This document shows positions 26,562-35,390 of a stretch of 36,456 nt of DNA, piece after piece. The DNA is from a virus. Taxonomy: Duplodnaviria; Caudoviricetes. A model generated the notes under the pieces. The model worked only from the letters and a program-made list of their open reading frames with translations, ran no database searches and was not told the DNA's origin. Numbering within the stretch: the stretch's first letter is position 1; each line of letters opens with the position of its first letter. The DNA lies in IMG/VR virus record IMGVR_UViG_3300020403_000036, positions 1-36,456 of that record. The stretch is one strand, 5' to 3'. The position numbers were made by a program, and so were the translations under genes.

Positions 26562-26784
26562 CAGTCACTGGGTCTCCAGCGAGTACAACATCATAGGCGC
26601 TTCTCTTGTCGTAATATATTACATCATCGGCTTTTACTTGAGTAACTAAATCCCCAACCGTTTTTATCCTTCCCTTTCCATAGCGCATTTGACTTACGTC
26701 TTCACCTGAAAGAATAAGACCTGAGTCTGTTTTGACTTCTTCTTCTACTTTGTCAATGACAATAAAGTTATTTATGGCTCTCAT
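26527..26784 (-). CDS. groES: Co-chaperonin GroES, 85 aa
   Basis: Mobile loop KTDSGLIL, G...TVG, VK.DDVIYY, DVV; ATGA-coupled to groEL. Confidence 0.9.
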   Translation of the reverse strand: MRAINNFIVIDKVEEEVKTDSGLILSGEDVSQMRYGKGRIKTVGDLVTQVKADDVIYYDKRSAYDVVLAGDPVTVIQLKDVVIVL

Positions 26785-28379
26785 TTTCTTTTAAGTGTTA
26801 CTATTGCGTTTGTTGAAAGTATAGTTGTTGCTACAGATACTGCATTGCGTAGTGCGTTCTTAGTTACTTTAGCTGGGTCAATGATTCCCATCTTAAACAT
26901 ATCTCCGTACTTTTCTTCTTTTACATCGTATCCATAGTTCCAATCCACAATTTGAAAATCATTGTAGTATATCTTATTGAAATCTTTGCCAGCGTTCAAA
27001 AGTATTTGATGTGCTGGAGCTTTAAGGGCAGATGTAAAAATTGCGTGAGCAATTTTTTTTGATTTTTCGGACTTATCTTCATCTAATATGATGCATGATT
27101 TGTACAAAGCAATCCCTCCACCAGGCACAATCCCCTCTTCAAGAGCGGAGCGTACAGCACAAACAGCGTCATCAACTCTATCGTATAGCTCTTTCTGCTC
27201 CACATCAGAGTTGCCTCCAACGTAAATAATACCGATACCGCCTGTAAGACTTGCGATTCTTTCCTTCAAGAAGTCTTTGTCGCCTTTTACCTTAGCATTG
27301 TTATGCTGATGCCATAGCTCATCAACTCTCTTCTGGATATCGTCGTCGTTTCCTTTACCTCTTATGATGATGGTATCTTCACGACCTACAATAACTTTCT
27401 CAGCAAACCCAAGGTCATCCATAGAAATCAAACCTAAATCATCTCCTGTGCTTTCTGAAAAGTATTTTGCCCCAACGGCCAGCGCTATGTCGTTCATAAG
27501 CTCATGGCTTCTGTATCCGAACTGCGGAGGAATGATGTGACAAATCTTAAGACCATTACGAACTACGTTTGCAGCAAGTGTGTTAATCACATTCTGCGAG
27601 CAGTTGCCGATAATCAAAAGCTTTTTGTTCTCGTTGATTACTGGCTTTAGTATTCTTTCTATGCTAACGACATTAGAAATCTCTTGGTCTGCACAAAGCA
27701 CATGCACATCCTCAAGGATGCACTCATCACGCTTGTGGTCGTTGACAAACAGATGTGAGGTGTAACCTCTATCAATCCGTATACCCTCTGTAACTTCTGA
27801 GAATGTATCAGAGGTCTGTGACCTCTCAACTGTAACGATGCCGTTCTCACCCACCTTTTTGTAAGCTTCAGCTATCAACTTCCCAACCTTAGAGTCGTTA
27901 TTAGCAGAAACAGTAGCTACATCATCTAATCTTCGTCCGCTAACTTTCTTTGACTTCTTGTCCAGAAACTTCACAACCTCCTCTGACAATCTGGTAATCT
28001 CACGAATAACCTCCGTGACATTCACATCTTCATTAGACAAAAGCTCCATACCGTACTTAATCATAGCCTCGGTAAGAACAATCGCAGTCGTTGTGCCGTC
28101 ACCCGCACTCACTGCCGTTCTATCGGCAGCGTCTTTCATAATACGAACAGCCAGGTTCTCAACAGAATCCTCAAGTGCTATTGACCTTGCTACTGTAACA
28201 CCATCCTTTGTGATGGTGACTCCTCGTGTATGGTTTTCTGATTCGATGAGTACTGTGTTTCCTCGTGGGCCGAGTGTACTCTTGACTGCTTCTGAAATCT
28301 TTTCGATTCCATTTAGCAACTTGTCACGACCTTCTTGGTCGAACACAAGTTCTTTTGGTGTGTAACTTAATTCATTCAT
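26781..28379 (-). CDS. groEL: Chaperonin GroEL, 532 aa
   Basis: VKSTLGPRG, ITKDGVTVA, AGDGTTTA, EEGIVPGGG and GIIDPAKV motifs. Confidence 0.97.
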   Translation of the reverse strand: MNELSYTPKELVFDQEGRDKLLNGIEKISEAVKSTLGPRGNTVLIESENHTRGVTITKDGVTVARSIALEDSVENLAVRIMKDAADRTAVSAGDGTTTAIVLTEAMIKYGMELLSNEDVNVTEVIREITRLSEEVVKFLDKKSKKVSGRRLDDVATVSANNDSKVGKLIAEAYKKVGENGIVTVERSQTSDTFSEVTEGIRIDRGYTSHLFVNDHKRDECILEDVHVLCADQEISNVVSIERILKPVINENKKLLIIGNCSQNVINTLAANVVRNGLKICHIIPPQFGYRSHELMNDIALAVGAKYFSESTGDDLGLISMDDLGFAEKVIVGREDTIIIRGKGNDDDIQKRVDELWHQHNNAKVKGDKDFLKERIASLTGGIGIIYVGGNSDVEQKELYDRVDDAVCAVRSALEEGIVPGGGIALYKSCIILDEDKSEKSKKIAHAIFTSALKAPAHQILLNAGKDFNKIYYNDFQIVDWNYGYDVKEEKYGDMFKMGIIDPAKVTKNALRNAVSVATTILSTNAIVTLKRK

Positions 28380-28395
28380 TCGATTTAATTTTAAA

Positions 28396-28403
28396 CAAAT
28401 ATA
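28396..28403 (-). promoter_or_regulatory. Bacteroidota -7 element (TATATTTG) for groEL-groES
   Basis: Minus strand reads TATATTTGTTTAAAATTAAATCGAATG into the groEL start. Confidence 0.6.
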
Positions 28404-28455
28404 TCAAAACAAATACCGAAAAACAAAACATGTTAATATGACAGTTTTATTCTTC

Positions 28456-28496
28456 AGTATACTACTACTACTATATTACTACTATATACTATTATT
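28456..28496. repeat. Degenerate (TAC/TAT)n low-complexity tract
   Basis: TACTACTACTACTATATTACTACTATATACTATTATT seen directly. Confidence 0.7.
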
Positions 28497-28521
28497 TTTA
28501 AATCTCTATAATAGGAGGTAA

Positions 28522-29440
28522 AATCAACATATTAACATAAAAGACTAATAATCAATCAGTTACGAAAAAAATGTTTACATAAACTCAGCAGTCTGATGTT
28601 GATAATCAACATTCTGGCTAGTAATTAATATGTAATCCTATAAAGAATAGGTATAAGTTTAGTTCTCTGTAGTCGTATTTATTGTCTCTTGGAAAGTATG
28701 ACCATCCGATTAGCGGTCCGTGCTTAACTCTGTTAGATATGCTTAGTGTGATGTCTGTATTCATTCGGCTAATGTAATCAATACCTCTGAACAAATTGTG
28801 TTAGATATATGGAACTTGAGGGTTATACATACATATTACGTGTCGTGCCTCAAAACTAAAATCGCTTTTTTTCTCGGTGGGGGGTACATCTTTGAGCCAT
28901 GACATGCAGATTTTTTGACGTTTTTAACTGCCTGACTATCAGATAGTTACATTCTTGTTGCAATAGCTTTCACATCGCACACCCTCTGTAAATACCTGAG
29001 TATCAACGACTTACAGCTATCCCTGTTGTATCTTTTTAGATACAGAGAGAGAAAGCATAACACCCTCACTATCAACAAGTTACACTTATATTTTAGGGGT
29101 GAATACAATATATCATAACTACTTGATTATCAATAAGTTACAAACACAATTTTATTGTGTAATCGAAGGAAACAATACCAAAACAAAACCATCAAATTAT
29201 CATATTCTCAATAAATACCCCAAAAACACCTATTTTATTGCGAAATTCTCATGAGAATAATGCAACGAAATCGACATTTTATTAAATTATTCACAACAAA
29301 AACATTGTTTTGCTAAGATGTTCATAAAAATGCTATGATTTTAAGATTATTTTAGTGTTTTGTGCCAAGCCCATAACTACCTGAAAGCCAGCCACTTACA
29401 GCCATATCAGAAACGTAACTTGCTCATTATCAGCATTTTA
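28522..29440. repeat. Dispersed array of WATCARnnnnTTR (IHF-consensus) sites, several as inverted pairs
   Basis: Exact plus-strand matches at 28522-28534, 28550-28562, 28937-28949, 29001-29013, 29070-29082, 29128-29140 and 29428-29440; minus-strand match at 29116-29128. Confidence 0.75.
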
Positions 29441-29459
29441 TAGTCTAAATATATATATA

Positions 29460-29486
29460 TACGTTTGTGTCATCGTTCTTTGACAT
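29460..29486 (+). promoter_or_regulatory. Early promoter -7 element (TACGTTTG) followed by boxA-like GTTCTTTGACAT
   Basis: TAnnTTTG at 29460-29467 after a (TA)n tract; 29475-29486 resembles the rrn antitermination boxA (E. coli GCTCTTTAACA). Confidence 0.6.
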
Positions 29487-30035
29487 ATCAGCACACACAT
29501 ACAGCTCCCGACCTCGTGGAGTGTAACGCGTGTAGGAGATTTCCTACTTGTAAGAATTTTCTTACAGGTTCGAGAGTGCCTGCAAACCTGAGAGAGTAGC
29601 GTGTATAGGTGTAGCCGAGTTTGAATTGCCGAAGTACAAACGGAGTACAAAGTAGCAACGGAAGTTATCCCCGTCTTTACGGGTTAAAACGATAGCATTC
29701 TATCAAGTTATTCAACGAGCAAAACGTACGAAGTAAGGCAACCCCTTCTCATTCGGGGGTAATAGATGAGGAACTGCAAAGCCGAAAGGCTTAAAGCAAG
29801 ATAGATAGCCAACCATGGGCAACAGATTGAGGCATCGTGTAAAGTGCAACGACAAGTTTGAAAACTTGCGTGAAGTGGGATAAAAGCCACCGAATATCAA
29901 CTGCTTATTTTACGAAGTAAGTCATGGGAAAAACAAGTACAAGAACGCCATGCGTTACGAGAGAGCGTACCTGAGAAAGCGTGAAAGGTGAAAACCGAAT
30001 AACCCTATCAGAGTGAAATCTGGTAGGGTAACTAC
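29475..30035 (+). ncRNA. Candidate large structured non-coding RNA or 5' leader (~560 nt)
   Basis: No credible ORF; more GC-rich than its flanks; about 12 short hairpins with A-rich linkers, including GAAA and UACG tetraloops and G-U pairs that favour the plus strand. Confidence 0.65.
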
Positions 30036-30073
30036 ATTTTTAACACTATTATTAATCTTTAAATTCAATTATT

Positions 30074-30484
30074 ATGAAAACTCAAAATGTAACTAAATCC
30101 GTAAGTAATGCAACAAAGAAGGCAAGAGCAAAGAAAATCAGCAAAGCCATCGAATTGCAACGTAAATTGAAATCAGCACACGAGAAAGAAATCCGTGGGC
30201 TTAATTCACTTGTGAACTACGTCACAGCCAAAGGTAAATTTTCAGAATTTACAGAAGGCAAAAAAGCAATGGAGAACTTCATTGCATACGTCAATGACCG
30301 AGATAACGTACAGATAAAAATCAGCGATATATCAGTCAAAAACGTAGTGGCTAATTTGACCGAGAGAGAACTCAACAAGAAAGACGGAACGAAGAAAACT
30401 ATCTTCTCAACGTACCACACAAAACTTGCTGTTTCTCGTATGGGCAAAGCGTTAAGAAAGCAGAGAATTTCAGCCAAAGCTTAA
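30074..30484 (+). CDS. Basic early protein, 136 aa
   Basis: First ORF of the right arm with an A/T-rich leader; Lys-rich; its stop codon lies within hammerhead stem I. Confidence 0.8.
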   Translation: MKTQNVTKSVSNATKKARAKKISKAIELQRKLKSAHEKEIRGLNSLVNYVTAKGKFSEFTEGKKAMENFIAYVNDRDNVQIKISDISVKNVVANLTERELNKKDGTKKTIFSTYHTKLAVSRMGKALRKQRISAKA

Positions 30485-30534
30485 CTGATGAGACTTCAAT
30501 AGTCGAAACACCATGTTCGCATGGTGTATTAAGC
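30479..30534 (+). ncRNA. Type I hammerhead ribozyme
   Basis: Stem I GCUUAA/UUAAGC; core CUGAUGA (30485-30491); stem II GACU-UCAAU-AGUC; GAAA; stem III CACCAUG-UUCG-CAUGGUG; cleavage triplet GUA (30526-30528). Confidence 0.93.
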
Positions 30535-34331: not shown

Positions 34332-35390
34332 ATGTGTATAATTATTGTAAAACAAGACGACGACAAAGTAATCAAGAGAGATACCTTGATTGCTTCATCA
34401 GCTAAAAACCCTCATGGATTGGGTGTTCTTTGGCTGGACAAGTGGAACATTGAATACTTTGACAGCACAGAATACGAGGTGCTACTTACAAAGCGACCAT
34501 TCATTGCCCACTTCAGATATGCAACGGTTGGTAAGGTGTCGAGAGAAAACTGCCACCCGTTCAACATCAACAAGAATGAAGTGCTGTTTCAGAACGGAAC
34601 TATCTACAATCTTGGGGATGCAGACACAACAGACACAGAAGCTATGGCTCGGATACTCAAGAACATACCCAAGAAACATTGGAGAGATGTGCTTGAGATG
34701 AATGACTGCAGGTTTGTAACAGCAGACCTGAAGAACAAAACATTCGAGTTGTACAACGAGCAGGATTGGGTACAGCGTAATGGAATATATTACAGCAAGA
34801 AGAATGTGCTTGACCTTGTGCCTGTTGCAGTGTATGGTACACTAAGGAAAGACTATTCAAACTACTCAAGATACCTTCGCACTTCAGCTTATGTAGGCAA
34901 GGGTTACACCAAAGACAGGTATCCACTTGTCATAACTGGACTACCCTATCTGCTAAACAAGAAGGGTGTAGGTTTCAATGTAGAAGTTGATGTGTTTCTG
35001 GTTGACCAGTACACACTATCTCAACTTGATATTCTTGAGGGACACCCTAATTGGTACAAGCGAGAGAAGATTAAGATTGAAATGGAGAACGAAAGCTTCA
35101 TCAATGCATGGATATACTTCAATGACACTGAAGACACTGGAATATACCACGAGAGATACAATCAGAACATACTACCAAGCTACGACAGATTCAATACTTG
35201 GGACGCATGGGATGATGATGACTTTGATGATGACTTCGGAACAGCTACATACGAGCCGAAGGTTACAGAAGAAAGGTGTTCTTGCGGGGACACACTTCAC
35301 TTTGACCCATACTATCAAGACGCTCAGTATTGTATGAGTTGTGAGGACTATATATATAATGATGATAATAAAATTTTAGAACATGAATAA
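34332..35390 (+). CDS. Class II glutamine amidotransferase fused to a gamma-glutamylcyclotransferase (AIG2-like) domain, 352 aa
   Basis: N-terminal nucleophile MC, NPHG.G, AHFRYAT, NCHPF, QNG, TDTE; then VAVYGTLRK and LDILEGHPNWYKR; C-terminal CSCG...CMSC. Confidence 0.85.
   Translation: MCIIIVKQDDDKVIKRDTLIASSAKNPHGLGVLWLDKWNIEYFDSTEYEVLLTKRPFIAHFRYATVGKVSRENCHPFNINKNEVLFQNGTIYNLGDADTTDTEAMARILKNIPKKHWRDVLEMNDCRFVTADLKNKTFELYNEQDWVQRNGIYYSKKNVLDLVPVAVYGTLRKDYSNYSRYLRTSAYVGKGYTKDRYPLVITGLPYLLNKKGVGFNVEVDVFLVDQYTLSQLDILEGHPNWYKREKIKIEMENESFINAWIYFNDTEDTGIYHERYNQNILPSYDRFNTWDAWDDDDFDDDFGTATYEPKVTEERCSCGDTLHFDPYYQDAQYCMSCEDYIYNDDNKILEHE

Follow-up and report, generated by a model that had tools for sequence, protein, structure and literature searches.

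A large pseudoknotted RNA behind an rRNA-operon-type boxA at the head of the presumed early arm of a podovirus-type phage genome

Here we describe a structured RNA element, almost certainly conserved, that lies between a predicted promoter and the first gene of the presumed early arm of a tailed phage. The window, which is the whole stretch of DNA analysed, is 36,456 nt long (IMG/VR record IMGVR_UViG_3300020403_000036). A first-pass annotation of it had proposed a ~560-nt non-coding RNA at 29475..30035, following a promoter and a boxA-like motif. The RNA is borne out and is more complex than described, with extensive covariation and three crossing helices; its core, however, has been trimmed to 29488-29997 (~510 nt), and the last of the hairpins originally included falls outside it. 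As modelled from aligned homologs, the fold shows four domains with three crossing helices (pseudoknots). The features referred to below are as follows, in window coordinates.

29460..29467, + strand: promoter -7 element, likely of the Bacteroidota TAnnTTTG type but imperfect, with a predicted start near 29472
29474..29486, + strand: boxA of rRNA-operon type, present in all homologs reaching it and with an rRNA-operon counterpart
29488..29997, + strand: structured RNA core of ~510 nt, recognised by covariation, G-U bias and consensus energy
29488..29618, + strand: 5' domain, with interrupted stem P1 (29488-503/29602-18), hairpin P2 and a variable insert at ~29530-29598
29626..29741, + strand: domain 2, with nested stems P4 and P5, the long arm P6/P7 and hairpin P8
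29742..29771, + strand: H-type pseudoknot formed by P9 (29742-46/29755-59) and PK1 (29747-52/29766-71)
29808..29927, + strand: P11 hairpin/PK2 domain, in which the P11 loop (29813-17) pairs with 29923-27 (PK2)
29945..29997, + strand: 3' pseudoknot domain, in which P17 (29945-48/29979-82) is crossed by PK3 (29969-72/29986-89)
30002..30029, + strand: hairpin P19, a repeated gene-start module outside the core
30074..30484, + strand: ORF1, the first early gene, whose basic, all-helical product of 136 aa belongs to no known family
30480..30533, + strand: hammerhead-like core of type I that overlaps the stop codon of ORF1; no second one was found in the window
26781..28379, - strand: groEL of the phage, listed for context as the closest gene on the divergent, structural-side arm

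Homologs were gathered through ORF1 and comprise one IMG/VR locus and 11 metagenome loci. The RNA is located directly upstream of ORF1 in ten of the 11 metagenome loci; the eleventh reaches only 80 nt and carries the last hairpin. Three loci are identical over the RNA, and the resulting alignment holds ten distinct sequences, one of them partial, that are 62-96% identical. Its RNAalifold consensus contains 113 pairs, 50 of which have double changes. The curated model was chosen by exhaustive helix search of the same alignment and comprises 125 pairs, including the crossing helices. In this model, 96.4% of 1202 cells are paired, and 55 of the 125 pairs are changed on both sides, as against 31 in partner shuffles and 3-10 when the model is slid along the alignment. 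The RNAalifold pairings 180-184/618-622 and 256-259/489-492 were dropped from the curated model, and the P18 pair 507/517 fails in nine of the ten sequences. Because model and alignment are not independent, we also ran a column-shuffle null that keeps the pattern of each column, with a strict helix defined as at least four fully paired columns with at least two Watson-Crick swaps. Covariation, which the first-pass annotation had named as a check, was clear: seven strict covarying helices were found, and none in any of 40 column shuffles. With one mismatch tolerated, there are 14 helices, of which the model contains 13, against a shuffle mean of 0.78. PK1, PK2 and P17 belong to the strict set and PK3 to the relaxed set. 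Contigs from runs X1 and X2, which were outside model building, contribute further double changes and, at 29744/29757, a pair type absent from the alignment (C-G to A-U), both among the 40 of 102 rows shown.

Within domain 2, P6 has double changes at eight of its ten pairs. P9 and PK1 are both 100% paired, with two double-change pairs each, and both are in the strict set. PK2 spans the P12 junction (29824-29902, with P13-P15) and P16 (29903-22); it is 100% paired with double changes in three of five pairs, and all six pairs of P12 are doubly changed. A further loop-tail pairing is possible in the 3' domain, judged by eye. An HDV-like reading of the 3' pseudoknot was discarded, the order of its strands differing from the HDV strand order used in the comparison. 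Unpaired positions of the core are invariant in 98 of 194 cases, and 127 of 279 unpaired bases are A; invariant, A-rich unpaired positions are expected for tertiary contacts. All 12 hairpins proposed earlier were found where they had been placed, and seven of them, at 29670, 29741, 29779 (in part), 29853, 29875, 29903 and 30002, are supported by covariation, the last being a repeated module not unique to this RNA. The hairpins at 29532, 29549 and 29565 exist in the window but are optional; they lie in the variable insert of the 5' domain, and several homologs lack them or have other sequence instead (the insert is deleted in L071/L072 and exchanged in L076/L079). Two hairpins gave way to better-supported pairings, 29691-96 pairing with 29664-69 and 29923-27 with 29813-17.

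The stretch is richer in G and C than its surroundings, as had been noted (0.446 at 29501-30000, compared with 0.30 and 0.36 in the flanking bins), and likewise holds no credible ORF: no + strand ORF of at least 50 aa is present, and the longest + strand stop-free run is 40 aa. Among homologs, 55 of 62 indels relative to the window are not multiples of three (seven are), and a coding role is ruled out because most of them break the frame. Folding energy, proposed as another check, is only mildly unusual against shuffles (z -2.26 on + and -1.94 on -). Single-sequence z values of the homologs range from -1.2 to -5.1, and a segment inside ORF1 scores better (-5.5) than the candidate RNA; this segment was rejected as a structured RNA since its fold is not conserved (consensus -19.8, covariation term 2.2). 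Folding energy by itself is weak evidence, and it is covariation that rules out chance. The consensus energy is -91.6 on + and -63.5 on -, and paired columns hold 95 G-U against 10 A-C, a count biased by the choice of model. The + strand is the favoured sense of the RNA.

Genes of the virion side (terminase, portal, virion proteins, holin, endolysin, groEL/groES) are encoded on the - strand up to 28379, and the + strand from 30074 carries small genes without assigned function. The window is part of a podovirus-type genome, about 60% of the whole, and from its gene content and layout we infer that the + strand arm is the early arm. Its terminase is 73% identical to that of the uncultured phage MW202828, 47% to those of Flavobacterium elemo phages and 33-37% to those of Cellulophaga and Tenacibaculum phages. 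The phages Gundel and Calle are assigned to Pachyviridae and Pervagoviridae (excerpt of PMC8776804). Terminase kinship and the taxonomy of relatives point to a flavobacterial host.

The promoter claimed at 29460 (+), TACGTTTG, holds up imperfectly: it fits TANNTTTG but not the revised Bacteroidota consensus TAHHTTTG, which disfavours G at -9 (excerpt of PMC6847099), the base found there in the window. The + strand of the window holds 27 occurrences of TAnnTTTG. Among the seven homologs shown, three have the same element, two have TACATTTG further upstream and two have an imperfect element. The boxA-like motif is firmer. CGTTCTTTGACAT at 29474 is kept in all nine homologs that reach that far, and the pattern GTTCWTTGACATAT has five matches in two of four flavobacterial genomes, every one of them before 16S or 23S rRNA; the two before 16S are each preceded by a TATATTTG element. 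The window boxA is one base off the host rRNA-operon form, and L071 and L072 carry the host form of that base. From this sequence match, the phage boxA is of rRNA-operon type. A Nus/SuhB complex nucleated by boxA provides antitermination in E. coli and helps rRNA to fold there (excerpt of PMC8632103), and by analogy with that work boxA would bind NusB-NusE and mediate antitermination in Bacteroidota as well. The arrangement resembles that of an rrn leader, with the same motif (one base apart) and the same order of promoter, boxA and long untranslated structured RNA. It differs from flavobacterial rRNA operons in that the element is on a phage, the RNA behind boxA is not rRNA, and boxA, at about +3, is nearer to the predicted start. 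Of 23 related groEL loci scanned, six show a boxA-like match in the arm that points away from groEL, and the other 17 lack one. On its own, boxA does not imply a large RNA, as it is also found before short leaders. The earlier suggestion of an antitermination leader therefore holds for boxA itself, and for the folded part it is one of the rival readings weighed below.

On the 3' side, P19 has seven of its ten pairs changed on both sides. A second copy is found behind ORF1 in eight of 11 loci, and the other three, including the window, have a hammerhead-like core there. By its placement, P19 is likely a processing or 5'-stabilising site at gene starts. Described with the usual names of hammerhead core elements, the candidate at 30480-30533 shows the CUGANGA and GAAA core, three stems and an NUH site, and scores below Rfam thresholds. 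The hammerhead-like copy of L075 gives a weak match to the RAGATH-1 hammerhead (27 bits, E 0.8). Behind ORF1 in L074/L075 the core of this copy carries a U-to-C substitution, and the pairs of its stem II are swapped. Read depth at the hammerhead-like site is high in run X2. No + strand intrinsic terminator was found behind the RNA, none of three terminator-like sites being one. ORF1 begins 45 nt behind P19, and the distance from boxA to its start codon is 518-615 nt in the eight loci measured; no switch over the start codon is seen, because the start lies in unpaired, A/U-rich sequence. The protein is rich in lysine and arginine and has 49 relatives down to ~27% identity with a broader profile. 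It has no match in Pfam, PHROG, PDB or BFVD, Atlas hits at 0.90 being uninformative, and on these comparisons it founds an unnamed family of basic helical proteins.

An Rfam cmscan, as the first-pass annotation had suggested, gave no gathering-level match and only chance matches up to E 10. Group I and II intron, RNase P, tmRNA, HEARO and ribozyme families have no match in the window region or the homolog loci; no interrupted gene or adjacent nuclease or maturase gene is present, and the flanking proteins are without such domains. The option of a divergent ROOL did not survive a controlled model test in either direction. The ROOL model (RF03087) has no match at E<=10 in 28400-30200, nor at E<=1 in six homolog loci, nor in the L001 contig, and scores 130.4 bits on the control pMP118; in reverse, R1, our model of the RNA core, finds nothing on ROOL. 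ROOL averages 581 nt, with six multistem junctions as well as three pseudoknots (excerpt of PMC5737381). The present RNA is ROOL-like in being phage-linked, ~500-600 nt long and built of multistem junctions and three pseudoknots, with A-rich conserved joiners and GNRA loops. The ROOL consensus motifs UGAAG-hairpin-CG.AUA, UAGCCAA and AAUAGA are resembled by eye, but their order differs here. Whereas P1 of ROOL closes the 5' end to the 3' end, P1 here closes only 29488-29618; the core is 510 nt, fewer junctions are resolved and the topology is unlike the consensus. The setting also differs, in a Bacteroidota-type phage, with boxA at an early promoter and no tRNA in the window (~60% of the genome).

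GOLLD is likewise a large ornate phage RNA with a variable 5' part and a more constant 3' part, and many of its members exceed 800 nt (excerpt of bioRxiv 2024.12.08.627333). The present RNA is ~300 nt shorter, with no tRNA neighbour among the genes of the window, in which no tRNA or tmRNA genes were found. Size argues against GOLLD, and the GOLLD model (RF02032) has no match in the window or homologs, a comparison made without a positive control. The GOLLD env-38 and ROOL env-120 sequences, taken from supplement 1 of PMC12286853, show no collinear likeness to it by eye. HK022 put and B. subtilis EAR are likewise structured RNAs that lead an operon and may alter RNA polymerase, and like them this RNA lies between an early promoter and the first gene; put is ~65 nt long (excerpt of PMC8632103). 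The present RNA is eight times longer, pseudoknotted and joined to a putatively Nus-binding boxA, and has neither the double hairpin nor an Rfam match to put or EAR. Abundant long RNAs of phage K have been likened to the ROOL and GOLLD classes by position only (excerpt of PMC9241854). The literature searched, with subscription papers and bioRxiv supplements outside its scope, holds no description of such an RNA or of boxA in these phages. A motif and identifier search of six supplementary files of PMC10690425 (other than files 1, 2 and 4) gave no match, and the list of unnamed candidates in that paper may hold this RNA. Its anatomy is of the ROOL/GOLLD kind, and we file it as a member of neither. 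By these model comparisons, that of GOLLD being uncontrolled, it appears to be a new family without a catalogued match, of an already known kind. Among the options offered at first, a new class in Bacteroidota phages is the favoured one, given the covariation, three pseudoknots, + strand sense, host-type boxA and lack of an Rfam match.

All occurrences found of the RNA fall within a single narrow clade of podoviruses related to Elemovirus and Pachyviridae. R1, run on sets without the elemoB genome, found nothing in 41 loci other than the window, matched only the L001 contig among 44 related records, and found nothing in 151 Flavobacteriales-order genomes and five bacterial genomes. With blastn, the RNA gave five short chance matches in 50,697 phage records, none covering more than 6% of it. 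A 17-mer motif scan returned the L001 contig and two chance loci, a gapped scan of invariant motifs the L001 contig and nine chance loci, and an 18-mer scan 60 genome loci, none of which R1 confirmed.

In some sister phages boxA precedes other folded RNAs. Shorter folded leaders that end in hammerhead-like or tRNA-like elements are seen by eye in several of the six boxA-positive groEL loci and in MW202828. With the broader ORF1 profile, three IMG/VR loci were found, and ORF1 is first in the two that have upstream DNA. All three have boxA and a different conserved stretch of 430-550 nt behind the ORF1 homolog, at these positions:

L158 3568-3995, L160 3594-4140 and L159 517-1063: second boxA-led stretch, behind the ORF1 homolog

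Between two of these sequences 14 of 72 predicted pairs are doubly changed, and the stretch ends in a tRNA-like T-arm hairpin; it has no match to any Rfam family or to R1 and is a candidate for a new RNA in its own right. Because sister phages place a different boxA-led RNA after ORF1, boxA and large RNA would form a movable unit that need not lead ORF1, and its fold appears, from these loci, to differ by clade. Upstream of groEL on the opposite strand in L012, L013, L029, L032 and L039, and likewise in L002 (18590-18870) and L153 (19000-19500), a boxA-like motif is followed by a leader (by eye); these leaders are 100-650 nt long, with hammerhead-like cores or minimal tRNA-like elements. A 900-nt contig of run X1 matches the window on both flanks, and 580 letters less than 80% alike replace the RNA at 29467-30026 and end in a P19 variant; this stretch is either a homolog that has diverged very far or a different RNA occupying the slot.

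What the RNA does is weighed here among several readings. To a released, trans-acting structural RNA, transcribed in the manner of rRNA and forming its own class of the ROOL/GOLLD kind, we give an even chance. Host RNA polymerase would start near 29472, and the boxA, a motif plainly present, would load the host Nus antitermination and folding complex, by which the long untranslated stretch would escape Rho and fold during synthesis like rRNA. The RNA would then be parted from the ORF1 message at P19, a hairpin also present at the following gene start, where the hammerhead-like core can stand in its stead; with no + strand intrinsic terminator behind it, a free RNA depends on this putative cut. 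Once released, it is predicted to accumulate and to assemble through loop-loop and A-minor contacts, for which PK2 and unpaired stretches without variation (AGUAC at 29633, for instance) are candidates, into an oligomer that could act as scaffold or decoy during early host takeover. Size and the three pseudoknots speak for a free RNA by analogy with the description of ROOL (excerpt of PMC5737381). Against it, all ten cases are directly 5' of ORF1, though they were found through ORF1; the spread is narrow, unlike that of ROOL and GOLLD, and the window has no tRNA; the promoter is imperfect, boxA sits at about +3 and differs by one base from the host variant, and it is missing in 17 of 23 groEL loci. 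Large structured RNAs can also be monomers, raiA for example (excerpt of bioRxiv 2024.12.08.627333), and the support comes from ten related sequences and a column-shuffle null rather than R-scape.

The constant position 5' of ORF1 in the ten homologs, the boxA at the 5' end and the lack of a terminator behind the RNA would also suit a cis-acting processivity element, whose fold remains on the polymerase together with the Nus factors, like put or EAR, so that the early operon is read through and, perhaps, the genome pulled in. HK022 put sits in the same place, between early promoter and first gene, but is only ~65 nt long (excerpt of PMC8632103); this RNA is lacking in most related phages, which run the same early arm, and in sister phages the boxA-led RNA comes after ORF1, which makes this reading unlikely. 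That ORF1 adjoins a large RNA led by boxA in either of the gene orders observed suggests by analogy that the protein could bind the RNA, as a ribonucleoprotein partner or through an autoregulatory leader, and tune its own or early expression. Lambda N binds nut; ORF1 is lysine/arginine-rich and all-helical, and the purine-rich loop of P19 may resemble boxB. Distant ORF1 relatives nevertheless adjoin RNA that R1 does not recognise, the protein has no fold match to any RNA-binding protein and no structure covers its start codon, and we rate this rather improbable. The compact pseudoknots, above all at 29945-29997, could instead form a new ribozyme or a nuclease-resistant processing element that cuts or protects the early transcript. 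Many unpaired bases are invariant, and relatives carry hammerhead-like cores or tRNA-like 3' hairpins in this slot; however, 510 nt is far above the needs of self-cleavage, no ribozyme, intron or RNase P family matches and no gene is interrupted, so that this too is quite improbable. A deeply diverged or rearranged ROOL or GOLLD is very improbable indeed: short motifs like the ROOL consensus, a similar size and the same number of pseudoknots are offset by the motif order, two ends not closed by a stem, silence of the ROOL model at E 10 despite its working control, silence of R1 on ROOL, and the greater length of many GOLLD members.

Bacterial RNAs of at least 500 nt with several pseudoknots are rare. 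A stronger form of the released-RNA reading, in which this RNA would represent a third class of RNA-only nanocage or scaffold, evolved independently, in a swappable boxA-plus-large-RNA slot of the early arm of Bacteroidota podoviruses, is tentative and on balance doubtful. If it were true, the phage would borrow the transcription and folding machine of host rRNA and thereby make a structural RNA in bulk within minutes of the start of infection, and the slot would be filled with unrelated folds in different clades. ROOL and GOLLD form protein-free cages (excerpts of bioRxiv 2024.12.08.627333 and PMC12990946), and the former source leaves open how general cage formation is; a new fold of such size offers an independent test of that generality. 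Its fixed position, leading the early arm and preceded by an rRNA-type boxA, gives a sharper prediction of timing and synthesis than is available for RNAs of tRNA islands, and cultured relatives (Elemovirus, Pachyviridae) infect tractable flavobacteria, although the phage records searched with blastn gave no more than the short matches above.

Elsewhere in the window, imperfect palindromic repeats (TAAC...TGA.TATCA...GTTAC) occur several times at 28540-29445 and are retained in L001; they may be recombination, replication or packaging sites. Of the 42 contigs of groEL loci L006-L047, some of them near-duplicates, 18 stop no more than 4.5 kb upstream of groEL and six downstream, and low-complexity repeats lie upstream of groEL in L002, L158 and L160; together these contig ends and repeats give a weak hint of a physical genome end near the early promoter. 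At 34332-35390 (+), a glutamine amidotransferase-like domain is fused to a gamma-glutamyl cyclotransferase domain.
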